Positions 2,447 to 16,877 of a stretch of 16,877 nucleotides of DNA are shown one piece after another; position 1 is the stretch's first letter, and the number at the start of each line of letters is the position of its first letter. Both the position numbers and the translations under genes were made by a program. The notes below the pieces were generated by a model that was not told the origin of the DNA, did not search any database, and was given only the letters and a program-made list of their open reading frames with translations. This DNA comes from a virus. Taxonomy: Duplodnaviria; Heunggongvirae; Uroviricota; Caudoviricetes. The stretch lies in IMG/VR virus record IMGVR_UViG_2531839147_000004, one strand, 5' to 3'.

Positions 2447-2869
2447 GTGGCAAAAGTTTTTACACAAGAAGAGCGGGAAAAAATTAAAGGGCAGGTTCTT
2501 GAACTCGTACGCCAGAGTGGGCGCGAGACGTTACGACAACTGGAAGCTAAAACTGGGGCAACAAGATATCTGATGAGCGTTCTGGCCAGAGAGCTGGTTG
2601 CCAGTGGCGATGTATACAATTCTGGCTACGGGTTATTCCCGTCTGAACAGGCTCGTAAAGACTGGCAAAATGCCCGCAAAAAATTATCGAGGGCAAAGCT
2701 GAAGAAACCGGTTGTGGTTGATCCGGACCTTATCTGGTCATTACCTGACGGAGAAATACGTCGCTACGACAGTCGCCTAAACATAATCTGTCGCGAGTGC
2801 CGGAAGAGCGAAGTTATGCAGCGCATATTGTCGTTTTATCAGGGGGATGTTCGGTATTTATTGAAGTGA
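2447..2869 (+). CDS. Hypothetical prophage protein (GTG start), possible winged-helix DNA-binding protein; last phage-type gene before the cargo block
   Basis: 140-aa ORF, SD CAGGAGGG 5 nt upstream of GTG 2447; basic C-terminus; no Walker A motif, so not a DnaC-type helicase loader. Confidence 0.45.
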   Translation: MAKVFTQEEREKIKGQVLELVRQSGRETLRQLEAKTGATRYLMSVLARELVASGDVYNSGYGLFPSEQARKDWQNARKKLSRAKLKKPVVVDPDLIWSLPDGEIRRYDSRLNIICRECRKSEVMQRILSFYQGDVRYLLK

Positions 2870-2937
2870 CGAGATTAAAGTGCATTAGTTCAGATGCAAA
2901 TTGACATTTTGTGGCACAGGGTAGAGCTAGCGTGGTT

Positions 2938-2961
2938 GTCCGCTTTGTGCCAAGAGCAGAC
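2938..2961. repeat. Dyad element copy A: GTCCGC-N12-GCAGAC
   Basis: GTCCGC TTTGTGCCAAGA GCAGAC, about 240 bp upstream of BCCT start; nearly identical spacer to copy B. Confidence 0.5.
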
Positions 2962-3203
2962 GCTGGTAATTCGTGCCTAATATACTTCACTTAACTTATA
3001 TCCCAGCTTTGATACAGATCATACAAATTAAATGCCCCAGTAATTGGCAGGCTGAGTAACTTAAAACTCCTTAGAATATAGGATGATTTGTATCGGCACT
3101 CATTCCACCATGCATTCCGATTAACCCCGCATAGCCAGTTGAACTTTGCTACTCTGTGAGAGGTAGTACCTTCTATCCAGTGCGGATTTAATTAATGGAA
3201 TAA

Positions 3204-5207
3204 ATGATTATGAGTGAAAATGATACAACCCCAAAGAAGTCTACAAGCCAGATTAACAAAGCGGTATTCTTTACATCTGCTTTGCTAATTTTCCTTCTTG
3301 TCGCCTTTGCCGCCGTATTCCCGGATGTCGCCGACAAAAATTTTAAACTACTTCAGCAACAAATCTTCACGAATGCCAGCTGGTTCTACATACTTGCTGT
3401 GGCCCTGATTTTACTGAGCGTCACGTTCCTTGGACTCTCACGTTACGGTGATATAAAGCTGGGCCCAGACCATGCGCAGCCTGATTTCAGCTACCACTCC
3501 TGGTTCGCGATGCTTTTTTCGGCAGGGATGGGGATCGGCCTGATGTTCTTTGGCGTTGCCGAACCTGTGATGCATTATCTTTCGCCACCTGTCGGCACTC
3601 CAGAGACCGTTGCGGCAGCGAAGGAAGCCATGCGCCTGACGTTCTTCCACTGGGGTCTGCACGCATGGGCAATTTATGCCATCGTGGCGCTGATTCTGGC
3701 CTTTTTCAGTTACCGTCACGGTCTGCCTTTAACGCTGCGTTCTGCGCTCTATCCCATTATCGGCGATCGCATTTACGGGCCTATAGGCCACGCGGTTGAT
3801 ATCTTCGCCGTGATAGGCACTGTCTTTGGCGTTGCAACATCGCTGGGTTACGGTGTATTGCAGGTGAATGCCGGTTTGAACCATCTTTTCGGCGTGCCCA
3901 TCAATGAAACGGTACAGGTCATTTTGATCGTGGTCATCACGGGGTTAGCGACGATTTCGGTGGTGTCCGGCCTGGACAAGGGAATACGCATCCTGTCTGA
4001 GCTTAATCTGGGCCTGGCGGTGTTGCTCCTGGCGCTGGTCTTGTGCCTGGGTCCCACTGTGCTTCTGCTGAAGTCATTTGTGGAAAATACGGGTGGTTAT
4101 CTGTCGGAACTGGTGAGTAAAACGTTCAACCTTTACGCGTATGAACCCAAGTCGAGCAACTGGCTGGGGGGCTGGACATTATTATACTGGGGATGGTGGC
4201 TTTCATGGTCGCCGTTTGTAGGTATGTTCATTGCACGCGTTTCCCGCGGCAGGACAATTCGTGAGTTCGTGACTGGCGTGTTGTTTGTTCCCGCCGGCTT
4301 TACGCTCATGTGGATGACGGTGTTTGGAAACAGCGCCATCTATCTCATCATGAACCAGGGCGCCACTGACCTCGCCAATACCGTTCAGCAGGATGTTGCG
4401 CTTGCCCTGTTTAATTTCCTGGAGCATTTCCCGTTCTCTTCCGTGCTGTCATTCATTGCAATGGCGATGGTCATCGTCTTCTTTGTAACGTCTGCTGATT
4501 CGGGGGCAATGGTTGTGGATACTCTGGCATCAGGTGGGGTGGCAAACACGCCCGTCTGGCAGCGAATTTTCTGGGCATCGCTCATGGGCGTTGTTGCTAT
4601 TGCCCTGCTGATCGCAGGGGGGCTGAGTGCGTTGCAAACCGTAACGATAGCGAGTGCATTGCCCTTCTCAGTTATCTTATTAATATCCATATACGGACTG
4701 TTAAAAGCCCTGCGTCGGGATTTGACCAAGCGTGAAAGCCTTAGCATGGCGACTATTGCTCCTACGGCTGCACGTAACCCAATTCCCTGGCAGAGAAGGT
4801 TACGCAATATCGCGTATTTGCCGAAGCGCTCTCTTGTGAAACGTTTTATGGACGACATTATCCAACCCGCCATGACGCTGGTTCAGGAGGAACTTAACAA
4901 GCAGGGAACGATAAGCCACATCAGTGACGCCGCCGAGGATCGTATTCGCCTTGAAGTCGATTTGGGCAACGAGCTGAATTATATATATGAAGTGAGGCTT
5001 CGCGGGTATAACTCACCGACCTTCGCGCTCGCTGCGCTGGATAATGATGAGCAGCAGAGTGAACAACATCGATATTATCGCGCTGAAGTCTATCTCAAAG
5101 AGGGCGGCCAAAATTATGATGTAATGGGCTGGAATCAGGAACAGCTGATTAATGACATACTGGACCAGTACGAAAAACACCTGCACTTCCTGCATCTGGT
5201 TCGTTAA
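3204..5207 (+). CDS. BCCT-family transporter, BetT-like (choline / glycine-betaine type) with long cytoplasmic C-terminal tail
   Basis: 667 aa; BCCT tryptophan signature GGWTLLYWGWWLSWSPF; overall layout and C-terminal tail (...DILDQYEKHLHFLHL) parallel E. coli BetT as I recall it. Confidence 0.9.
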   Translation: MIMSENDTTPKKSTSQINKAVFFTSALLIFLLVAFAAVFPDVADKNFKLLQQQIFTNASWFYILAVALILLSVTFLGLSRYGDIKLGPDHAQPDFSYHSWFAMLFSAGMGIGLMFFGVAEPVMHYLSPPVGTPETVAAAKEAMRLTFFHWGLHAWAIYAIVALILAFFSYRHGLPLTLRSALYPIIGDRIYGPIGHAVDIFAVIGTVFGVATSLGYGVLQVNAGLNHLFGVPINETVQVILIVVITGLATISVVSGLDKGIRILSELNLGLAVLLLALVLCLGPTVLLLKSFVENTGGYLSELVSKTFNLYAYEPKSSNWLGGWTLLYWGWWLSWSPFVGMFIARVSRGRTIREFVTGVLFVPAGFTLMWMTVFGNSAIYLIMNQGATDLANTVQQDVALALFNFLEHFPFSSVLSFIAMAMVIVFFVTSADSGAMVVDTLASGGVANTPVWQRIFWASLMGVVAIALLIAGGLSALQTVTIASALPFSVILLISIYGLLKALRRDLTKRESLSMATIAPTAARNPIPWQRRLRNIAYLPKRSLVKRFMDDIIQPAMTLVQEELNKQGTISHISDAAEDRIRLEVDLGNELNYIYEVRLRGYNSPTFALAALDNDEQQSEQHRYYRAEVYLKEGGQNYDVMGWNQEQLINDILDQYEKHLHFLHLVR

Positions 5208-5215
5208 CAGCAACA

Positions 5216-5243
5216 TGCCGCCACAGAGGCGGCATTTATTTAT
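5216..5243 (+). terminator. Rho-independent terminator after BCCT gene
   Basis: Stem TGCCGCC / GGCGGCA (7 bp), loop ACAGA, followed by TTTATTTAT. Confidence 0.55.
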
Positions 5244-5386
5244 CCCGGCTGCAATATGAGGGAATGCAGAATGATTTCACGCTGGAAATGGATGCTGAAG
5301 CAGACATTTAAAAACTATGGTTCAGGGCAACGTTATTCGCAATTGTCGCAATAATAACGGCCCTTTTATCAATTCTTTTTAAATCA

Positions 5387-6547
5387 ATGATACCTGAGTC
5401 GGTTTCCGTGAAGGTTGGTGCGGAAGCAGTCGATAACATTCTGAACATACTGGCATCGAGTATGCTGGCAGTGACCACATTTTCGCTGAGCATCATGGTC
5501 ACAGCCTACGGTTCAGCCACTACTAATGTGACTCCCAGAGCTACTCGTTTAGTTGTTGAAGACGTCACCACACAAAATGTACTGGCCACCTTCATCGGTT
5601 CTTTTCTCTTCAGTCTGGTAGGGATTATTGCCCTCAATATGGGAGCTTATGGAGAAAGGGGGAGAGTCATTTTATTCATTGTAACACTGGTTGTCATTGC
5701 CTTAATCCTCATCACATTGCTTCGCTGGATACAGCATTTGACCTCTCTGGGGAGGGTTGGTGAGACAACGGCAAAAGTAGAACAGGCGGCCATCGAAACA
5801 TTTATTGCGAGAGCAAGAAATCCCTGTCTCGGCGGATATCCATGGCTTGAGAACAATGAACAGCCGAAAGGAACGGTTGCAGTTTATCCGAAAAAGATTG
5901 GCTATGTTGAATATGTTGATATGGTGAAACTCAGCAAGCTGCTGACCAATGATCCCCGTCATGTATACCTCGTGGCGCAGCCGGGCAGTTTCATACATCC
6001 GTCCACGCCAGTTTTGTACCTGAGTCAGGGCCAGGAGTCATCAATCAGCACCGATTTACTTGAGACGATTATTGTCTCGGATGTACGTTCATTTGCTCAG
6101 GACCCCCGATTTTGTCTTAGCGTCATGGCCGAAATAGCCTGCCGAGCCCTTTCCCCCGCAGTGAACGATCCTGGAACCGCCATTGATGTCATTGGCAGAG
6201 GTGTACGTATACTTTCCGCTTACGCGCAGAATAAATCTGATGAAATAGAAGTGAAATATCCTTCTGTACATGTTGCACCACTTCAGAATAACGATCTACT
6301 TGAAGACTTTTTCTCACCTGTTGCGCGCGATGGTGCCAGTATGAGGGAAATTCAGATAAGGGTACTTAAAGGACTGTCGATGCTGAGTAAGGGTTGGCCT
6401 GGAATTTTTGCTGAAGCCGCACAAACCCTAGCATTTGAAACATTAGAGCATGCTACTCGTGCTGACCATATAGATTCTGACAGATATCTAATAAAATCAA
6501 TTTATTATAATTTATTTAGTGGCGAAGATTCTAATAAAAAACCATAG
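5387..6547 (+). CDS. Membrane protein of unknown function (DUF2254-like), N-terminus probably disrupted by a frameshift
   Basis: Three predicted TM helices then a soluble C-terminal domain. A well-placed SD+ATG at 5271 opens a 27-codon ORF in another frame; the main frame is open from 5312 and encodes a further TM helix before the first ATG. Confidence 0.55.
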   Translation: MIPESVSVKVGAEAVDNILNILASSMLAVTTFSLSIMVTAYGSATTNVTPRATRLVVEDVTTQNVLATFIGSFLFSLVGIIALNMGAYGERGRVILFIVTLVVIALILITLLRWIQHLTSLGRVGETTAKVEQAAIETFIARARNPCLGGYPWLENNEQPKGTVAVYPKKIGYVEYVDMVKLSKLLTNDPRHVYLVAQPGSFIHPSTPVLYLSQGQESSISTDLLETIIVSDVRSFAQDPRFCLSVMAEIACRALSPAVNDPGTAIDVIGRGVRILSAYAQNKSDEIEVKYPSVHVAPLQNNDLLEDFFSPVARDGASMREIQIRVLKGLSMLSKGWPGIFAEAAQTLAFETLEHATRADHIDSDRYLIKSIYYNLFSGEDSNKKP

Positions 6548-6609
6548 TTGCGGAGCAAGCGATACGGTTGTTGGCAAGTCAAGGGCAAAGCATTCGCGTG
6601 AGAGTGGGC

Positions 6610-6633
6610 GTCTGCTTTGTGCCAGAAGCGGAC
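6610..6633. repeat. Dyad element copy B: GTCTGC-N12-GCGGAC
   Basis: GTCTGC TTTGTGCCAGAA GCGGAC in the convergent intergenic region between the DUF2254-like gene and the LysR gene. Confidence 0.5.
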
Positions 6634-6677
6634 ATACGTAACTTATGATACGCATCGCCAATCATCCGTTTCAAACA

Positions 6678-7559
6678 TCAACGCGGAAACGTTTTAAGAA
6701 TGTAATCCCGAACATAGGCGGTTCGGCTGTTATTAGCCGTCCTTTTGTTCCAGACCAGATAAAGATGATTAGTCGGAGCGAGGTCTGCAGGTGTCACTGA
6801 AATCAGGCGACCACTTTTCAGGTCATTGTCACAGTGATAATCCGGCAGCACTGTCCACCCGTGGCCGTCACAGACCAAGTCGCGGATAATACGTAAATCC
6901 GGAATGGTGAATGTAGCCTGCATCTCAGGGGCTCTCTGAAACATGGAGGCCCAGAGCGCTCTAATCAGTGGCAACTCTTCGTCATAAGCAATCAGCGGTA
7001 ATGAGGCAAGCGTTTCAGCACCAGGTTCTGATCCGATGATCTCTGACATGGCGGGAGCATGAACAAGGAGCATGCGTTCAGTCAGTAGATGTGCATAGCC
7101 GTACAGACGGTCATCAGGCATAGATGCGGTAACAGCGAGATCGGCGCTCCCGTCATGCAAAAGGGAATAAATACGTTGCTTATTGCCGGTATGAAAGCGT
7201 AGGCGATACCCCTCCTTCATTAGTGGAGCCATTACTGTCCCAAGCCGGGAATGAATAAAATCTGGCGGTCCTGCCAGATTAATTGTTCCCCCACGTACAG
7301 AGCCTGACCGGAAAGAGGACAGCTTTTCTTCCAGACCATCAATGAAGGGTGAAACTGAGCGGGCAAGCTCATCCGCAGCTTCGGTTGCCGTCACGCCTCT
7401 GGCCTGCCTGATAAACAGACGCTTACCAACCAGAGTCTCAAGAGACTGGATATGCTGTGACGCCGCGGGCTGAGTGATGCCCAGTAGTTCTGCCGCCTTT
7501 GAAAAGGAGCCAGAGCGATAGGCCTCAAGAAACGTTCGCAGATGGCTCAGATGGCTCAT
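6678..7559 (-). CDS. LysR-family transcriptional regulator
   Basis: 293 aa; N-terminal LysR HTH (LRTFLEAYRSGSFSKAAELLGITQPAASQHIQSLE); start ATG overlaps the stop of the upstream ChaC-like gene (ATGA at 7556-7559). Confidence 0.9.
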   Translation of the reverse strand: MSHLSHLRTFLEAYRSGSFSKAAELLGITQPAASQHIQSLETLVGKRLFIRQARGVTATEAADELARSVSPFIDGLEEKLSSFRSGSVRGGTINLAGPPDFIHSRLGTVMAPLMKEGYRLRFHTGNKQRIYSLLHDGSADLAVTASMPDDRLYGYAHLLTERMLLVHAPAMSEIIGSEPGAETLASLPLIAYDEELPLIRALWASMFQRAPEMQATFTIPDLRIIRDLVCDGHGWTVLPDYHCDNDLKSGRLISVTPADLAPTNHLYLVWNKRTANNSRTAYVRDYILKTFPR

Positions 7560-8248
7560 AGTGAAGCGCCTCGCTGATGAAGTTTATCGTTACAGGGAGC
7601 CTCATGCAGAGCAAGGGCCAGTTCACTCACGTAATCATCCCGTATTCCCAACGCACCCAGAGTGGCCTGCAGTTTCCATACATAATCTGCATTCGTGCCA
7701 ATGTCTCCACGGGCAGATGCGATGCTCAACGCTACGGTCGCTGTAAGATTGTCCTGTTCATAATGCGGATGCAGTCTGTCTGATACGAAAGCCAGCGCCT
7801 GAATTTCCTTACCGTTTCCTAGCGAAACGTCTGCCCAGACCGGACGGTAAAGACCGGTTATCATCTCGCGCGTCCAGACAATTTCCAGCTCATTAATAAG
7901 AGTCGATTCCGGCAGTCTGAACGCAATACCTTCGGTAATTCCACCTTCGTCGAGCGATAACATCCTGCCGGGGACATCAGGAGTCGCTCGTCCGGATATC
8001 AAACGAATGCAGAAACTGCGCTGCCATCCTTTCAGACGGGCCCGTTGCATTTCTTCAATCGCCAGCACGGGATTCCACATCAATGACCCGTAGGCAAATA
8101 TCCAGACAGGAGCACCCGTCGGGCGCTCCTCCAGAGTAGAGTTCATTGATGCGCGTATTTTTTCAGCGTCCCAGAGCATATTCGCCGGGAGCAGCGCTTC
8201 ATGCACCCTGACAAATGTGCCATTAAGCATATTTTCACGGGTAAGCAT
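7556..8248 (-). CDS. ChaC-like gamma-glutamylcyclotransferase (glutathione-specific GGCT family)
   Basis: 230 aa; hallmark VWIFAYGSLMWNP motif and overall co-linearity with E. coli ChaC as I recall it; SD GGGAGG upstream. Confidence 0.85.
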   Translation of the reverse strand: MLTRENMLNGTFVRVHEALLPANMLWDAEKIRASMNSTLEERPTGAPVWIFAYGSLMWNPVLAIEEMQRARLKGWQRSFCIRLISGRATPDVPGRMLSLDEGGITEGIAFRLPESTLINELEIVWTREMITGLYRPVWADVSLGNGKEIQALAFVSDRLHPHYEQDNLTATVALSIASARGDIGTNADYVWKLQATLGALGIRDDYVSELALALHEAPCNDKLHQRGASL

Positions 8249-8259
8249 ATAACCTCCCT

Positions 8260-9459
8260 TTACTGGCCTACGATTTTAACCTGTTGAAATTTACGACTGT
8301 GGCTGCGACGGATTTGTGCAAGCAGCAACAGCAGGCCGAGCAGAGAAACAATCGCACCGCTGATACCGGTATACACGATACCGGCGTGGCTTATAGTAAT
8401 GCTGCCCAGTACTGATCCCAGCGCTATACCTGAGTTGAAGCCCGCAATATTCAGGCCGGCAGCAACACCATGCGCATGAGGAGCATGTTGCTCAGCGACA
8501 CCAATCAGACGGGCCTGCAGTGCCGGCACTGCGGCAAATGTCACCATACCCAGCAGCGCAACCAGAATGCCCATGCTCACCGGTGAGGATGACAGCAGCC
8601 ACATACCAAGCACGACAACAACAATGCCGCTAATGATGAGTATATTGGCACGATTAACCCCCATGCTGTCGGTAAGTTTCCCACCAAGAATATTACCTAC
8701 CGCAGCTGTAATACCGTAAACCAGCATAAACAGACTCACCGTTGCTCCGGTAACCCCTGTCACCTGCGTCAGAATAGGTGCGATAAAGGTGTAATCCGTA
8801 AACGAGCCTGCATACGCCAGCACCGTAACCAGCGCGCCGGCCAGCAACTTACGGTTAAACAGCATGCCGATATTCTGCATTGCTGAGTCACTATGTTCAC
8901 CGGGCACGCTGCGTACGGGATCTTTCATACCGAACAACAGTCCAAGGAATCCGAACGCGCCAAAAGCGGCAATAGCGCCGAGAACTGGACGCCATGAGAC
9001 CACCCCCCCCAACCATGTACTCAGCGGTACGCCGATTGCCATCGCCAGAGTAAAGCCACCAAATACCACAGCCACCGCTCTGCCTGCTTTACCCGGTCCA
9101 GCAAGACGAGCTGCGGTACTGGATGCCGCAGCCAGAAACAGGCCGTGTCCCAGACCAGCAATGAACCGCGCTAACAGGAGCTGAGGTAATGTGGCTGCAA
9201 ACGCGGCCGCCAGACTACCGGCAGTAAACACAACGGCAGTTGTAAGCATTACATTTTTCCGGCTCCAGCTTGCTGTCAGCGCAGACAGTACGGGTGCCGC
9301 GAACGTTGCCCCCAGTGCATAGGTTGTAACCGCTGCCCCGGTCTGCTCCACACCCACACACAACCCCTGAGCCATAACGTCTGTCAGCCCAATGGGGACA
9401 AATTCCGCGAGTCCGAGCGCAAAGGCACTGATAGTAAACACATAAATAACAAATGGCAT
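8260..9459 (-). CDS. MFS transporter (12-TM, YdhP / drug-sugar efflux-like)
   Basis: 399 aa, highly hydrophobic with repeated TM segments; N-terminal LGLAEFVPIGL motif typical of this MFS subgroup; SD CAGGAG before ATG; first gene of the MFS-ChaC-LysR operon. Confidence 0.85.
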   Translation of the reverse strand: MPFVIYVFTISAFALGLAEFVPIGLTDVMAQGLCVGVEQTGAAVTTYALGATFAAPVLSALTASWSRKNVMLTTAVVFTAGSLAAAFAATLPQLLLARFIAGLGHGLFLAAASSTAARLAGPGKAGRAVAVVFGGFTLAMAIGVPLSTWLGGVVSWRPVLGAIAAFGAFGFLGLLFGMKDPVRSVPGEHSDSAMQNIGMLFNRKLLAGALVTVLAYAGSFTDYTFIAPILTQVTGVTGATVSLFMLVYGITAAVGNILGGKLTDSMGVNRANILIISGIVVVVLGMWLLSSSPVSMGILVALLGMVTFAAVPALQARLIGVAEQHAPHAHGVAAGLNIAGFNSGIALGSVLGSITISHAGIVYTGISGAIVSLLGLLLLLAQIRRSHSRKFQQVKIVGQ

Positions 9460-9675
9460 GACTGGCTCCTGATTTAAGTAAGGAGTGCAGTCTGATTTAG
9501 AAAAACAGATAAATAAAATAATGTAAACTTCAGGCGGGATAAAATTATTTATATCTAAGGCAAAGATTCAATATTCCCACAGCACACAGAAGTTTTCTGT
9601 CTTCAGGGAGAGGAGCTTCGAAAGTTCAGACGAAAAATTCCTGCGGCCCCTTTAAGAGTCAGTTGGCCGGGTTTG

Positions 9676-9699
9676 GTCCGCTCCTCGCTCAAAGCGGAC
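9676..9699. repeat. Dyad element copy C: GTCCGC-N12-GCGGAC (perfect arms)
   Basis: GTCCGC TCCTCGCTCAAA GCGGAC about 220 bp upstream of the MFS operon start. Confidence 0.5.
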
Positions 9700-9878
9700 T
9701 AGAAGGTTAGCTTGCGTCGGACTTGGCGTATTTAAAGAAGTGCTGGTGGTGACTGGTTGTTGTGTTCCATTTCTACAGAACAAAATCACAGAAACTATAC
9801 CCAATAGTTATATTGAATCAATGATGAGACAGCCTCATATTTATCAGAACTGGTGTACGTCCAATACAGGAGGTTGTC

Positions 9879-9968
9879 GTGCTGGTTCTCAAATGTGCGC
9901 TAGCTATTGCGGCTGTAATGGCAATTTATTGTCTTGCTGTTGTTCTTATGGAGCGGCTTTCTGATTGA
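9879..9968 (+). CDS. Candidate small hydrophobic peptide (29 aa, MLVLKCALAIAAVMAIYCLAVVLMERLSD)
   Basis: Consensus SD AGGAGG (9868-9873) exactly 5 nt upstream of GTG 9879; single predicted TM helix. No recognised family; speculative. Confidence 0.3.
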   Translation: MLVLKCALAIAAVMAIYCLAVVLMERLSD

Positions 9969-10110
9969 TTACATACTGGCTAGAAAAAAGGTGTTACCTT
10001 GGTTTATCTTTGTCCGGCAAGGTGCGCTCATTAATCTTAAGTAAATTTATTGCTCAAGTATTCAGATTACTTCTTATGGTTGAAGTCTCCTGTCAATGTA
10101 GAACCAATAT

Positions 10111-10152
10111 ATTTACAAAAATGAGACCCGTCGGGGATAGCCCTGCCGGGTC
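10111..10152 (-). terminator. Rho-independent terminator of the YeaR-like gene
   Basis: 12-bp stem (10125-10136 / 10141-10152, one mismatch, loop ATAG); on the minus-strand transcript it is followed by UUUUU. Confidence 0.55.
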
Positions 10153-10182
10153 TGACTGTTAAAGCATTTTTAATATGATCAT

Positions 10183-10521
10183 CTATTTTTTGGTGCTATA
10201 GACTTTTTCGCCCGAGAAGTCTGGAGCGACCCAAAAGTTAATATTAAACTGAGCATCATCGCTTAGTTCAACACGGTGCCAGTATTGTGGTGGGCTTGTT
10301 GCAAAAGCGCCAGCATTAATGACTACTTTTATCTCCGGTTCAGTAGCATTCTCATCAGTAAAACCATAATATGTTACAGTGCCTTCCATTACGCACAACT
10401 GCCCAAAAACACCTGCTGCTGTATTATGATGTGTTAATAACGCTGAAGGTACGTTCTCTTTTGTGAAGAACGGAGTTGAGCGTTTGATTACCCAATCTTT
10501 AGGAATTCTCTTGTGTGTCAT
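10183..10521 (-). CDS. YeaR-like DUF1971 protein (nitrosative-stress regulon type)
   Basis: Motifs KRSTPFF and FATSPPQYWHRVE fit the YeaR/TehB-C-terminal cupin-like family. Start reassigned to the internal Met (ATG 10521, SD GAGGTGG) because the ORF-track start at 10545 lies inside the upstream operator palindrome. Confidence 0.7.
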   Translation of the reverse strand: MTHKRIPKDWVIKRSTPFFTKENVPSALLTHHNTAAGVFGQLCVMEGTVTYYGFTDENATEPEIKVVINAGAFATSPPQYWHRVELSDDAQFNINFWVAPDFSGEKVYSTKK

Positions 10522-10536
10522 AACCACCTCATCAAA

Positions 10537-10559
10537 AACATGCATTATAAATGCGTGTT
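10537..10559 (-). promoter_or_regulatory. NsrR-type operator (11-1-11 palindrome) overlapping a TATAAT -10 element
   Basis: AACATGCATTA T AAATGCGTGTT, 9 of 11 arm positions symmetric; resembles the E. coli NsrR consensus as I recall it. TATAAT on the gene strand sits at the palindrome centre (10545-10550). Confidence 0.5.
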
Positions 10560-11334
10560 TTTGAGGGTTATGTCAAGCTGTTATGAAACACATAATTGAT
10601 ATGTTGATTAGAGGAGAAGATATAATAAATATGGTTGTTTTTCGTATAACTATTTGTTTTACTTTTAGTTTATGCATTCTGTGTGTTAGGAATAAGTTAT
10701 TAAAGTTTAATCAAAAAATCTCGATGTAGTCCACATAGATTATTGTTACTGAACCTTATTGTGTGTATTAGTTGTGTTCTGAAATTTCAGCTTAATTATT
10801 TATGATGTATTTTTTAACGATAAATATTTTCCCAGGATACCTTTACTGTGTATATAAATAAATTATATACACATAAATAATGTAAAGGCGTCCTTTTAGA
10901 TATATCTTATCAAATGTTAATGACTTGAGTGGGAAATATGATTCCAGCAACTTATCATGTGGCTACTTTATAAAAATAATGCCCATATAAAACAACAAGC
11001 GAAAAGGATTACGGATAAAAAAGGAGCGAGATGTGCGAACTTGTTATTTTCCATGTTTAACCACCTTAAATAATTGATGATGACGGGATGATTGCATCTG
11101 TAATGCTTTTATTGAAATGTTATGATAAAAAAGAACTTTTGCATAACATTAAAATGTAATTTATCTAATCGTTTTTAATAATAAATGTCGTATTTCTATC
11201 CTTGTACCAGCTATTTGATATGTAGTGTTTGTTCATGCTATGTGGGGCTTTACACCATAGCCAGTTTATTTATACTTTATTCGTCAGCCTGAACAACTGG
11301 CATCTGCTGCGCTGCGCCATCGAGAGATTGAGAA

Positions 11335-12763: not shown

Positions 12764-12839
12764 TTTCTTACGTATAAACTGCTTCAATTTTGCTATGCTT
12801 CGCAAAGCTGTATCGCGAGGCGGATTGCAGACATGGACA

Positions 12840-12860
12840 TCGTAAAAAAACCGCTTAATG
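12840..12860 (+). terminator. Candidate tR'-like terminator downstream of the Q-like gene
   Basis: A7 - ACCGC TTAAT GCGGT - T7; short GC stem flanked by A and T runs. Confidence 0.4.
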
Positions 12861-13189
12861 CGGTTTTTTTACGTCAGGAAAGCAGGGGAGAATGCTGCTA
12901 GTTGGGCAACTGGTCTTTCTGCTCCAAATTATAACAGAGACCAGTTATAGTTTCGGTGCTGTGTTTTTTTACAATATTGTGATAACACATTGCTGGCGGG
13001 AGTTTTGATATTTCTTGGCAGGGGCTGATGATGCGTTATCCTGATGTCGTCAACTCATATAAAATGAGATGAGAGATCATTGCAGGGTGGTTTGTAATTC
13101 GCTGTTTAGCGGGACAATATGTTGTCTGATACAAGACACCCGACGCCTCAGATTACTATAATAAAGACGAAGCATCCTTTGTATTGACC

Positions 13190-13215: not shown

Positions 13216-13805
13216 GGACTGGTTTATTGTATGCCAAATGATTATTAAAAAGGTTGTGTTAATAACAAAATCCGAAATAATATGCCTGCATATTTTTATC
13301 TTGCTTATATTCTGCATATTGTGCATAGCAGGCTCATCCCTGCAATCAAAACTGTATGATGAGTTATTTTTTTTTCCTTTTTTCCAGTCATCTGATGATG
13401 ACCTGCTTCTTTTTAATCCGGATCGACATCAGTTTTTTAAGATAATTCCTGCGAGTTATATGCATAAATACCACAAACTCCGCATTTTATGTGGTTGGGA
13501 GTTGCCGGGCGCGCAGTGAGTTTGCTAAGAAAACTCCTGCATGGTGAATCCCCCTGTGCGGTGGGGTGATACCATTAACCTTTTCTGTCGCCGACAGGTA
13601 TCACGAACATTTTGTTCACCGGGAGGCACCCGGCACCATGCACTTCAATAGATTCTCTCCACATTATGGATATTCTTTCAGAATATCCCACGCAGACTTT
13701 GTGTAAATGTTAACAAATGTGCGTTTTATTTGATCTGATTCGCTGTTTGAGCGTCCAAAACAACGGTATATATAATCCTTTACTATATGACATATGTGAG
13801 GAAAA

Positions 13806-14234
13806 ATGGGTTTTCGTAGCGCATCAATTCTTACGTTGATTATTAGTGGGATTATTATCGGGTGCACTGATGCTGTATCGACAAATTATCATGACCGTAC
13901 ATCATATTACTCCGATAAAGCAATAGAGACACAGTATGTGAGTTCATCTGAACGTACTTCTGATGTTAGTGAGGATATCCGTCTGTATGCCCATCAAATC
14001 AAGAGCGCCATCGAAAAACAGTTCGGGGATGCGAGTAAGTATTCAGGAAAAGAGTGTACACTGAGAATGCATATGGCCCCGAATGGCCTTCTACTGGAGG
14101 TTAAAAGAGAAAGTGGAGACCTCGATTTATGTCGTGAAGCGATGAATGCGATAAAGAATGCTGATATACCTGCCCCCCCTTCGCCGGAAGTATATAAAGT
14201 ATTTCAAAATGGGGTGCTGGATTTTAAACCCTGA
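13806..14234 (+). CDS. Outer-membrane lipoprotein with TolA C-terminal (domain III)-like domain, paralog 1
   Basis: Signal peptide with lipobox IIGC then Thr; C-terminal ~85 aa align by eye to TolA domain III (QIKSAIE..., GKECTLRM, APNGLLL, GD..LC, IPAPPSPEVYKVF, ending VLDFKP); SD GAGGA before ATG; AT-rich. Confidence 0.7.
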   Translation: MGFRSASILTLIISGIIIGCTDAVSTNYHDRTSYYSDKAIETQYVSSSERTSDVSEDIRLYAHQIKSAIEKQFGDASKYSGKECTLRMHMAPNGLLLEVKRESGDLDLCREAMNAIKNADIPAPPSPEVYKVFQNGVLDFKP

Positions 14235-14384
14235 TATTTATTGTTTTGTAATAAACGGTTTCGGCTTAGGTTTGTTCTGACACAGCTACGGCACTGAGCT
14301 AAATTTAGCGGATAGTCAGCTCTGAGCCAGTGGCGGACGTAACAACTACTATTGCTGAGATTTTAATGGATTGAGGAGCAAGAA

Positions 14385-14780
14385 GTGGGATTAAAGAAAA
14401 TCGTTATGTTGACTTTTTGGGTCGGTTTTGTTGCGGGATGCACACCTTTACACCCTTCAGATTGCCACAAAACTACTGCTACAGGTAGTTGCAGTTCAGG
14501 ACGCTGGGATGATCAGGATGAATGGGGGGCGCAAGCGCGGGGAATCAGAGCTGCAATTAATGCCAAACTTGATGAGCCGCATAACTGGAAAGGGAAAAAA
14601 TGCAGGTTGCATATGGAATTCTCTCAGGATGGCACGGCGTTAAAAATATCTACCAGTAACGGTGATAAAGCCTATTGCGAAGCGATAAAGTCCGCAGCTC
14701 ATAAAGCCAAATTTCCGGCCTTCAACAATCCGGAAGTCTACAGAGATTTTCAGAAATCTGGCTTTGACATGCGAGGTTAG
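14385..14780 (+). CDS. Outer-membrane lipoprotein with TolA C-terminal-like domain, paralog 2 (GTG start)
   Basis: SD GAGGAG 6 nt upstream of GTG; lipobox VAGC then Thr; C-terminal domain shares the GK.C.L.M...DG...GD..C...P...PEVY..FQ...D pattern with paralog 1 (about one third identical by manual alignment). Confidence 0.7.
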   Translation: MGLKKIVMLTFWVGFVAGCTPLHPSDCHKTTATGSCSSGRWDDQDEWGAQARGIRAAINAKLDEPHNWKGKKCRLHMEFSQDGTALKISTSNGDKAYCEAIKSAAHKAKFPAFNNPEVYRDFQKSGFDMRG

Positions 14781-14938: not shown

Positions 14939-15031
14939 TCTCCAGCATATATATCAATTAAGGCTCTGATTGATGTGTCTGAAAGCCTACACATAATAAC
15001 TATGCCATCCGTTCCGTGCGGAGGTGAGGCT

Positions 15032-15247
15032 ATGAAATCCATGGACAAAATTTCAACAGACATTGCCTACGGCACCTCCGCAGGCAGTGCTGGCTACTGG
15101 TTTTTACAGTTGCTCGATAGAGTAACTCCGTCACAGTGGGCTGCAATCGGTGTGCTGGGTAGTCTGGTATTTGGCCTGCTGACGTACCTGACAAACCTTT
15201 ATTTCAAGATTAAAGAAGATAAGCGCAAGGCTGCGAGAGGTGAATAA
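15032..15247 (+). CDS. S: Pinholin, phage 21 S-type, with dual-start motif (MKSM...)
   Basis: 71 aa, [71 protein letters not shown], near-identical in layout to S21 as I recall it; SD GGAGGTGA; stop overlaps the next ATG (TAATG). The ORF-track start at 14975 is an upstream in-frame extension. Confidence 0.9.
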
Positions 15248-16877
15248 TGCCTCCATCATTACGAAAAGTCGTTGCTGCTGCTATTGGTGGCGGAGCAATT
15301 GCTATAGCATCAGTGTTAATCACTGGCCCAAGTGGTAACGATGGTCTGGAAGGTGTCAGCTACATACCATACAAAGATATTGTTGGTGTATGGACTGTAT
15401 GTCACGGGCATAACGGGAAATACACCGCACAGGATGCAACGACAGCACAGAAAGGGATAATCCAGCTAAGCAGCGCGACCAACAGCACGTCTGAAACGCT
15501 GGCGGCAACGCCAAAGGCAGTAAAATCAGCCTATGACAATGCAGAGAAACGTCTGCAGAAAGACCAGAACGGCGCTGATATACCCGATAAGGGACGCTTC
15601 CTGAACAACATTAACGCGGTCAGTAAAACAGACTTTGCTGATAAGCGTGGTATGCGTTATGTGCGGGTTAACGCTCCTGCAGGTGCAACATCTGGAAAAT
15701 ATTACCCTGTTGTTGTTATGCGTTCTGCTGGCTCAGTAAGCGAACTGGCATCAAGGGTCATTATCACCACGGCAACGCGAACCGCAGGCGATCCGATGAA
15801 TAACTGCGAGTTTAACGGATTTGTTATGCCTGGTGGCTGGACTGACAGGGGGCGTTATGCTTATGGAATGTTCTGGCAATATCAAAACAATGAACGAGCC
15901 ATCCACTCAATAATGATGAGTAATAAGGGCGATGATTTGCGCTCTGTGTTCTATGTTGATGGCGCTGCTTTCCCTGTTTTTGCGTTTATCGAAGATGGCC
16001 TGTCAATATCCGCACCTGGTGCTGATCTCGTTGTTAATGATACGACCTATAAGTTTGGGGCAACAAATCCAGCGACTGAATGTATCGCGGCGGACGTTAT
16101 CCTTGATTTTAAGAGTGGGCGTGGTTTTTATGAGTCTCATTCGTTAATCGTTAACGATAACTTGTCGTGCAAAAAACTTTTTGCCACAGACGAAATTGTA
16201 GCGCGTGGTGGTAATCAGATTCGAATGATAGGTGGGGAGTATGGGGCATTATGGCGTAATGATGGCGCTAAAACTTACCTGCTGCTTACCAATCAAGGTG
16301 ATGTTTATGGTGGATGGAATACATTAAGACCGTTTGCTATTGATAACGCAACCGGCGAACTGGTTATTGGAACCAAGCTGTCTGCAAGTCTGAACGGTAA
16401 CGCATTGACAGCAACAAAGCTGCAAACGCCAAGACTGGTTTCTGGGGTTGAGTTTGATGGTTCAAAAGATATTACTTTAACCGCCGCGCATGTGGCTGCT
16501 TTTGCCAGAAGGGCAACGGATACATATGCCGATGCGGATGGTGGCGTTCCCTGGAATGCCGAATCAGGCGCTTACAATGTCACCCGCTCTGGCGACAGCT
16601 ATATTCTGGTTAACTTCTATACCGGAGTCGGAAGTTGCCGGACCCTGCAGATGAAGGCGCATTACAGAAATGGTGGTCTGTTCTACCGTTCTTCAAGAGA
16701 CGGTTATGGTTTTGAGGAAGACTGGGCAGAAGTTTATACCTCGAAAAATCTTCCACCAGAAAGCTACCCAGTCGGCGCACCAATCCCGTGGCCATCAGAT
16801 ACCGTTCCGTCTGGTTATGCCCTGATGCAGGGGCAGACTTTTGACAAATCTGCTTACCCGAAACTTGCAGCCGCTTA
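15247..16877 (+). CDS. Chimeric ORF: SAR-endolysin N-terminus (phage 21 R-like, ~54 codons) fused in frame to lambdoid side-tail-fibre sequence; 3' end beyond the window
   Basis: Begins [55 protein letters not shown] (SAR helix plus start of lysozyme domain), then continues [15 protein letters not shown]... through ...[29 protein letters not shown], typical of Stf-type fibres. I translated the frame by hand and found no stop to the window end. Not in the ORF track because it is open-ended. Confidence 0.7.

Follow-up and report, generated by a model that had tools for sequence, protein, structure and literature searches.

The stretch of DNA analysed here, hereafter the window (16,877 nucleotides, IMG/VR record IMGVR_UViG_2531839147_000004), is a Rac-type lambdoid prophage of Escherichia coli that is found with 100% identity in many E. 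coli genomes, at least 80% of it being present in 226 out of 5,426. This report deals with three short sequences of dyad symmetry, A, B, and C, located at the boundaries of its cargo genes, and with a fourth related sequence, D, located further to the right. Annotation with Pfam, PHROG, and RefSeq revealed, from the left, genes for a repressor, a Cro-like protein, YdaT, a replication initiator, and a DUF977/Ren-like protein, followed by those for a BCCT transporter and a DUF2254 membrane protein. Further right, genes for a LysR regulator, a ChaC-like protein, and an MFS transporter are encoded on the other strand, and these are followed by DUF1971, DUF1367, YbcO, and DUF1133 Q-type antiterminator genes. 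According to this gene order, the cargo occupies the classic lambdoid slot between the replication and the nin/Q regions. The right end of the window contains two genes with TolA C-terminal domains and a holin gene, directly followed by a tail-fibre gene (14975-16877), so that the endolysin, head, and most tail genes have been deleted from the prophage.

The pattern GTCYGC-N12-GCRGAC, through which a first-pass annotation of the window had recognised A, B, and C, showed exactly three matches in 16.9 kb, compared with a mean of 0.01 in 200 dinucleotide-preserving shuffles, none of which reached three. Sequences and coordinates were as had been claimed (Table 1), and the three sites were intergenic both by the list of open reading frames (ORFs) and by the RefSeq annotation of the identical E. 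coli locus. A and B have 26 of 33 bases in common, upstream flank included. The same annotation had described three copies with the same arms and a spacer sequence shared by A and B. C corresponds, however, to an inverted copy, since every base of its reverse complement (GTCCGCTTTGAGCGAGGAGCGGAC) can be aligned with A and B; consequently, the 12-bp "spacer" is conserved in all three copies. The repeat unit has an asymmetric centre of 6 bp between two arms of 9 bp each, GTCYGCTYT and the complementary RRAGCRGAC. The centre defines the two core classes named here: V, with centre GTGCCA (A and B), and E, with centre GAGCGA (C). The fourth copy, D, a degenerate V, had been overlooked. The whole site spans 24 bp, or 28 bp with the usual AT flanks, giving an 11-6-11 geometry that reads (A)AT-GTCYGC..GCRGAC-AT(T).

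Table 1. Dyads, their backbone-side arms, and the associated genes and cassettes (window coordinates, except for the last row).
Feature	Position	Strand	Sequence and description	Basis
Dyad A	2938..2961	+	GTCCGCTTTGTGCCAAGAGCAGAC; exact match, class V (centre GTGCCA); junction phage backbone / cassette 1	
Dyad B	6610..6633	+	GTCTGCTTTGTGCCAGAAGCGGAC; exact match, class V; junction cassette 1 / cassette 2	
Dyad C	9676..9699	-	GTCCGCTCCTCGCTCAAAGCGGAC; exact match, class E (minus-strand centre GAGCGA), oriented into the cargo from its right side	
Dyad D	14315..14338	+	GTCAGCTCTGAGCCAGTGGCGGAC; one mismatch (arm GTCAGC), degenerate copy of class V (centre GAGCCA), flanked by two TolA C-terminal-domain genes	
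Left arm of A	2890..2937	+	Backbone side; TTGACA at 2901-2906; TGGCACAGGG, inverted copy of the left-centre of the dyad	
Backbone-side arm of C and conserved 305-bp backbone piece	9700..9980	-		BLAST of other loci
Left arm of D	14270..14314	+	Promoter-like CTGACA-17-TAAATT at 14277-14305	Promoter scan
DUF977/Ren-like gene	2447..2869	+	Left anchor gene of the lambdoid hotspot	Pfam DUF977, PHROG 142
Cassette 1	2962..6609		BCCT transporter (3204-5207) and DUF2254 membrane protein (5271-6547)	Pfam, RefSeq
Cassette 2	6634..9675	-	LysR regulator, ChaC-like gamma-glutamylcyclotransferase, MFS transporter	Pfam
Triple-hairpin arrays	L131 2869-2983; L155 5258-5372; L176 2464-2578		Other loci, outside the window	

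Comparison with other loci (numbered L) placed the ends of homology at the dyads. The homologous stretch of phage 204576 extends as far as 2961, the final base of A, and this phage carries its own copy (GTCCGCTTTGTGCCAACAGCGGAC) followed by unrelated DNA. BLAST alignments of L100, L004, and L041 end at the same base and that of L020 at 2952, while homology to the P2-like locus L031 starts at 2938, the first base of A. At B, the alignment of L059 ends at 6633 and that of L018 at 6635. At C, homology resumes at 9676 in L100, L020, and L059, at 9675 in L041, and at 9685 in L004. Locus L059 carries a different 2.2-kb cassette in place of cassette 2, with the same B-left and C-left flanks. The backbone flank of A was found joined to at least seven different right flanks and that of C to at least nine different cargo-side flanks; the conserved backbone piece beside C showed 87-98% identity in six other loci, each of them with different cargo. 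In addition, the BCCT-DUF2254 module was detected in other loci with the same A-B spacing (3672-3673 nt) and with its B end joined to three different right flanks. Of the proposals made from the window alone, that of recombination between the sites is supported, and A and B do enclose a BCCT-DUF2254 module, which has three different downstream neighbours across loci.

The position of the breakpoints within the dyad was analysed through the linkage of its variable bases to the flanks, for which 99 distinct contexts were clustered by flank. Dyad positions 4 and 8 were predicted by the left-flank cluster, with entropy falling from 0.88 to 0.14 and from 0.82 to 0.17, respectively, whereas positions 16, 17, 18, and 21 were predicted by the right-flank cluster (1.35 to 0.34, 1.89 to 0.46, 1.41 to 0.34, and 0.96 to 0.21). 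No prediction of positions 16-18 or 21 was obtained from the left flank. As left-half variants track the backbone and right-half variants track the cargo, the exchange lies between dyad positions 8 and 16, a resolution set by the available markers. The core class of each cassette end was invariant (conditional entropy 0). Read in this way, A consists of a phage left half and the right half of cassette 1, B of the left half of cassette 1 and the next right half, and C of a backbone half and a cassette-2 half. The reciprocal half-swap that had been suspected between A and B is what these comparisons show, each half of the dyad being linked to the flank on its own side.

Seven cargo ends were present on both lambdoid-type and P2-type backbones, and the end of cassette 1 of the window was itself found joined to a P2-type backbone in L031. 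In the clearest case, loci L100, of a lambdoid phage (replication initiator, DUF977), and L101, of a P2-like phage (tail sheath, tail-fibre assembly, tail fibre), have 1,033 bp in common at 99.6% identity. This segment begins exactly with the first base of V and ends with the last one of E, and beyond it the two loci are not similar. The cassettes are, in consequence, common to lambdoid and P2-like phages. Dyad D, for its part, is probably a relic and not a variable junction. Its sequence recurs in 20 phage hits with a constant right flank, and the tandem genes with TolA C-terminal domains that flank it (13806-14234 and 14385-14780), located between the antiterminator and the holin genes, were found as the same pair around D in 18 phage loci.

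When viral contigs were scanned with the pattern GTCNGCTYTGWGCSANNNGCRGAC, at least 119 stretches were recovered; this pattern fixes most dyad positions, so that only the degenerate ones are informative, and many of the phage loci are related by descent, so that counts do not correspond to independent events. Adjacent pairs were then listed in more than 100 phage loci and in the E. coli loci for both classes, with up to two mismatches. In 59 of these pairs, V+ was followed by E-, facing inward at 0.56-4.7 kb from each other; A (V+) and C (E-) likewise face inward and enclose 6.7 kb of cargo. Another 12 pairs showed E- followed by V+, eight of them as doublets 24-73 nt apart between consecutive cassettes, and nine showed V+ followed by V+, the A-B arrangement, with six of the nine at 3672-3673 nt. 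Not a single pair of V and E in direct orientation was detected among the adjacent dyads of these loci. The V+..E- bracket was also present in the Qin prophage of E. coli K-12, around flxA, and in a plasmid, where it encloses a 3.4-kb segment. The DUF977 gene lies at a median of 69 nt upstream of the V dyad in 24 loci, mostly on the same strand, with three convergent cases among the 24 placements. Near-identical V copies in E. coli are few (median 1, maximum 6 per genome) and are located in prophages and plasmids, the latter with 193 places. As a separate observation on Qin (L243), its V and E dyads are degenerate, enclose flxA at 5002-5025 and 5993-6016, and are near relBE and hokD; the ORF annotated there as "ydfV" overlaps the V dyad and may be spurious.

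About 40 distinct dyad-bracketed cassettes were identified, with one to three genes each and with two of them in series at two loci. Their products include cyclic-oligonucleotide-based anti-phage signalling systems (CBASS), several defence reverse transcriptases, PD-T7-1, PDC candidates, and TIR and HEPN proteins. No recurrent recombinase was found among 51 cargo proteins from these cassettes, only one of which has an integrase domain, and the clustering of ORFs within 1.5 kb of the dyads gave only backbone genes, plus ABC substrate-binding proteins in Alphaproteobacteria. The diversity of this cargo also bears on the proposal that the dyads could be operators for the neighbouring LysR protein or for another dimeric regulator encoded in the cargo. 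Such a function would agree with the dyad symmetry, the intergenic location, and the presence of one copy at each end of the LysR cassette. However, about 40 unrelated cassettes are flanked by the same sites and only one other carries a LysR gene, and LysR accounts for one of the 51 cargo proteins; B is located downstream of the LysR stop codon, between convergent genes; and the motif, present in more than 200 loci, also occurs where this regulator is absent (P2-like phages, plasmids, and distant bacteria). An operator function is, on these grounds, very improbable and, for practical purposes, refuted by the distribution of the motif.

The dyad also flanks a cassette located after the tail-fibre-assembly gene of P2-like phages (L007), and a search with this region matched GenBank entry AJ512683 ("Bacteriophage P2-EC58 proviral Z-region"), in which a "left inverted repeat" (3-115) and a "right inverted repeat" (1743-1833) are annotated. 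These repeats contain GTCCGCTCTGTGCCATGAGCGGAC and GTCTGTTTTTCGCTCAAAGCAGAC, respectively, with their arms. The arm of A plus its dyad aligns with positions 39-122 of P2-EC58, the reverse complement of C aligns with the right repeat, and the arm of D aligns both with the arm of A and with the left repeat. Alignment of six elements revealed 16 invariant columns, and the arms share TGACA..GGCACAG.G. The entry stems from the study by Nilsson, Karlsson & Haggard-Ljungquist (2004, Mol Biol Evol 21:1-13). Judging from this homology, the dyads of the window are members of the family annotated in 2004 beside the Z/fun region of P2-like coliphages, and the earlier suggestion of a small palindromic repeat family is supported. 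What is added here is a member of the family in a Rac-type prophage with two cassettes in series. In both settings, the same sequence family (dyad plus backbone-side arm) is present as two inverted copies that enclose variable genes of horizontal origin, immediately behind a conserved phage gene. In contrast to the P2 Z-region, the host here is a Rac-type lambdoid prophage, with the hotspot located between its DUF977/Ren-like gene and the nin/Q region. There are two cassettes in series and a third site (B) in direct repeat, and the cargo has transport and metabolic instead of anti-phage functions. For the Z-region repeats, PMC8987985 gives site-specific exchange of cargo as the proposed role.

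The location of the V copies, 62-69 nt downstream of the preceding phage gene and mostly in its orientation, would also agree with a hairpin formed in RNA or in single-stranded DNA, either as a stabiliser of transcript 3' ends, as a terminator insulating the cargo, or as a folded recombination substrate similar to attC. In this sense, B and C can form stems of 9-11 bp (-17.1 and -24.1 kcal/mol), and, in a fold of A, pairing is possible between the left-centre of the dyad and TGGCACAG(R)G located upstream. However, the dyad folds were no more stable than those of shuffles (z from -2.9 to +0.7, the lowest being a modest -2.9 for the plus strand of C), and the hairpin of A is not its minimum-energy fold. 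A long hairpin or cruciform of the full ~115-bp element was also considered and discarded (z = +0.74), the 124-nt full element folding no better than shuffles. None of the 27 terminator-like sites of the window coincides with a dyad, no U-tract follows any dyad (downstream bases GCTGGTAA, ATACGTAA, and TAGAAGGT), and a scan of the whole window against Rfam by E-value gave no known RNA family at the dyads. Covariation of stem positions 4/21 was absent in the phage loci (odds ratio 0.92, p=1), and pairing at positions 8/17 and 9/16 was no commoner than column make-up predicts. Among the genome loci, the doubly variant site at 4/21 was depleted (odds ratio 0.30, p=0.03), which is the pattern to be expected when the two arms are recognised independently and one of them has to be good. 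Furthermore, it is the stem sequence itself, beyond mere pairing, that is conserved across proteobacterial classes. The absence of covariation, the ordinary folds, and the lack of terminators and of Rfam matches favour the recognition of duplex DNA by a dimeric protein; the selected RNA hairpin that had been put forward for the dyads found no support, and we consider a hairpin function improbable.

Two promoter candidates were discarded as well. Among the left arms, only that of D passes the promoter scan, that of A having a poor -10 element, and in a possible sigma-54 promoter (TGGCAC), the spacing to GC is, by eye, off by one.

With some reservation, we lean towards an interpretation in which A, B, and C form the core of a conserved repeat located at the ends of cargo cassettes that can be exchanged in temperate-phage hotspots, and would act as protein-recognised sites for this exchange by a putative recombinase. 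A hotspot is bracketed by an inward-facing V site on one side and an inward-facing E site on the other, and, according to this model, the replacement of a cassette would require two crossovers, one inside each site. If each crossover took place within the central ~7 bp, the outer half-site would stay with the backbone and the inner one would go with the cargo, and the difference between the V and E centres would be the reason why a cassette end always keeps its own class. In the window, the BCCT plus DUF2254 and the LysR plus ChaC plus MFS cassettes stand in series between A and C, with B as the junction that joins them. Catalysis would likely correspond to a dimeric site-specific recombinase that recognises double-stranded DNA, for which the 11-6-11 geometry suggests, by analogy, a tyrosine recombinase; this putative enzyme is not encoded by the cassettes. 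The breakpoints at positions 8-16 are compatible with site-specific exchange, and support for it comes from the two-class inverted bracket, the central location of the breakpoints, the very short identity, and the duplex-site statistics.

Similar designs are found among known systems. With the pdif (XerC/XerD) modules of Acinetobacter plasmids and with engineered recombinase-mediated cassette exchange at heterospecific lox/FRT sites, the elements share a 28-bp 11-6-11 site, inverted boundary sites, a crossover in the central region, and two centres that would not cross-react and would keep the cassette ends distinct. The geometry found here, with inverted arms of ~11 bp, a 6-bp centre, and crossovers between positions 8 and 16, is that of Xer/dif-type sites. 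Unlike pdif modules, adjacent cassettes are separated by a doublet of sites and not by a single shared one. The inner bases of the dyad (CTTT/AAAG) differ, by eye, from the inner arm bases of dif, cer, and psi (ATAA/TTAT). Resemblances to Xer/dif sites, Hin/Gin invertase sites, resolvase res sites (TGTCYNNTA, compared with TGTCCGCTT), and FimB/E repeats were considered, and none of them was convincing.

Integron cassettes are also comparable in forming arrays of one to three genes without a recombinase of their own, separated by imperfect palindromes (L039, L045). In contrast to attC sites, the R''/R' boxes (RYYYAAC / GTTRRRY) are absent from the dyad and its flanks, there is no linked intI, attI, or Pc, the flanking sites are inverted and of two classes, and no sign of folded single-strand recognition was detected; no integrase gene is present in the window. 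A third comparison is with the sfx sites of the R64/IncI shufflon, recognised by the tyrosine recombinase Rci, whose 7-bp core is GTGCCAA (PMC4176322). This core is identical to the centre of A (GTGCCAA, 2947-2953) and of many V copies, B having GTGCCAG, and sfx sites are also inverted around DNA segments. However, the conserved right arm of sfx (TCCGGTNNNTGG) has no counterpart in the dyads when compared with the sequences in PMC4176322, and no rci-like gene was found in the window. Identity with sfx was consequently rejected, since the arms are unrelated, and the coincidence of the core may be due to chance.

A genome scan with one genome per species recovered at least 120 stretches with the motif. 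Among the matches listed, about one fifth belonged to Enterobacterales, where E-..V+ doublets are common, and most corresponded to Alphaproteobacteria (Pseudolabrys, Xanthobacteraceae, Hyphomicrobiales, Methyloceanibacter), Nitrosomonadaceae, and other Gammaproteobacteria. The consensus of the distant proteobacterial copies is AT-GTCCGCTTTGTGCCAAWAGCGGAC-AT. These copies sit between ordinary genes, such as those for a Na:alanine symporter, AspRS, MutY, and ABC substrate-binding proteins, and in L155 they form a dense repeat with about 20 copies in 8 kb. In alphaproteobacterial (Xanthobacteraceae-type) metagenome-assembled genomes, ordered triplet arrays with a period of 45-46 nt were found, in which the dyad is the third member, and the three share the same stem (GTCCGCTTT..AAAGCGGAC) with loops GGGTCA, ACCCCCG, and GTGCCA. 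These arrays are often located downstream of genes for ABC substrate-binding proteins. Literature text searches found no paper containing the triplet-array strings, and the searches for sequence strings in general returned noise or nothing.

This distribution recalls that of the repetitive extragenic palindromic (REP) sequences and the bacterial interspersed mosaic elements (BIMEs) built from them, which are imperfect palindromes of 20-40 bp, intergenic near gene ends, with sub-types alternating in orientation and dense in some genomes. REPs are also join-points of recombination, and REP families are usually species-specific. The elements described here differ in being low-copy and borne by mobile elements in E. 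coli, with high copy numbers only in distant taxa, and in having one sequence shared across bacterial classes. Regarding REP hallmarks, no 5' GTAG was found beside the dyad, and no transposase family recurred within 1.5 kb; a REP-associated tyrosine transposase (RAYT) was not seen nearby, although no systematic search for it was made.

Several of these results weigh against the cassette-exchange interpretation. An active recombination site that was repeated densely between housekeeping genes would be a hazard to the genome, and the repeat is in this respect closer to a REP-type element; this distribution is the main reason for limited confidence that the sites are dedicated targets of a recombinase. 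In addition, no gene was found to be common to the lambdoid, P2-like, and plasmid contexts, and no recombinase was identified. The chimera of A-left and B-right, expected as the product of a V x V excision of cassette 1, was not matched over its full length in any of 5,426 complete E. coli genomes. Finally, the longest uninterrupted identity between partner sites also lies at positions 8-16, so that recombination at short homology would look similar. It is possible, although in our opinion less likely, that the dyad is a REP-like palindrome with another role, for example in insulating transcripts or as the target of a nucleoid- or topoisomerase-type protein. Swapping would then be a by-product of single-strand annealing by phage recombinases (Rac RecET, lambda Red) or of illegitimate recombination, for which the short conserved dyad would provide the sole homology between neighbours that are otherwise unrelated. 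Along with the multi-copy intergenic 24-mer and its triplet arrays in distant Proteobacteria, the alternation of sub-types in orientation, as in E. coli BIMEs, and the missing excision product, this possibility is favoured by the recE gene that RefSeq annotates in the host prophage. Relaxed homologous recombination by Rad52-like phage recombinases is, moreover, an experimentally supported source of mosaicism, according to PMC3945230.

Other data argue in the opposite direction. Partner sites are identical without interruption over no more than about 7-16 bp, yet about 40 or more different cassettes use the same central window. Identities of this length are short for RecA and poor for Red. The E. 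coli copies, few per genome and located on mobile elements, do not resemble a chromosomal REP family, and the strict inversion of V and E and the fidelity of cassette ends to a single class are not predicted by homology alone.

Going one step beyond the exchange of cassettes at these sites, V and E could be two heterospecific core sites of a recombinase supplied by the host or by a helper, moving defence and metabolic cargo among P2-like phages, lambdoid phages, and plasmids in an integron-like manner without a linked integrase, with the sites derived from, or spread as, a REP-like family across Alpha-, Beta-, and Gammaproteobacteria. This extension is offered tentatively. Anti-phage defence systems are currently being sought in the variable hotspots of P2-like and lambdoid prophages. 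A term search of two hotspot papers (PMC9122126 and PMC13586616) found no mention of palindromes, hairpins, or inverted repeats. The element examined at these cassette junctions is a defined cis element of 24-28 bp, with two classes in a fixed inverted arrangement, which is of practical use for setting the limits of cargo cassettes when prophages are annotated. It also makes the swapping of hotspot cargo testable, through a protein that would recognise GTCYGCTYT-N6-RRAGCRGAC and through the 6-bp centre as a possible determinant of compatibility. In the window itself, the BCCT/DUF2254 and LysR/ChaC/MFS genes would be explained as two cassettes acquired in a Rac hotspot.

Further features were observed in the prophage. 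The conserved backbone piece beside dyad C includes a 47-codon ORF (9821-9964, plus strand) encoding a peptide with nine cysteines (MMRQPHIYQNWCTSNTGGCRAGSQMCASYCGCNGNLLSCCCSYGAAF), and a near-identical counterpart is encoded at the equivalent place in L004. Homology to other Rac-type loci ends again at 9980, where the dyad is absent, and the following 1.35 kb (9981-11334) is a further variable segment with matches in few phages only, which contains the DUF1971 gene (10183-10545, minus strand) and a 30%-GC stretch. Inside the replication-initiator gene, an exact 21-nt direct repeat (GCGCGTCACGAAATGTCACGC, at 1460-1480 and 1730-1750) and a 36-nt repeat with 75% identity (1900-1935 and 1996-2031) resemble origin iterons. 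Downstream of the Q-type gene, Rfam gave an STnc100 sRNA match of 86.6 bits, above the gathering score (13509-13695, plus strand), and a weak isrK-like match of 21.6 bits was located right after Q (12797-12870, plus strand). Finally, between the BCCT and DUF2254 genes, positions 5215-5235 form a hairpin with a perfect 8-bp stem and T-runs on both strands, similar to a bidirectional terminator.

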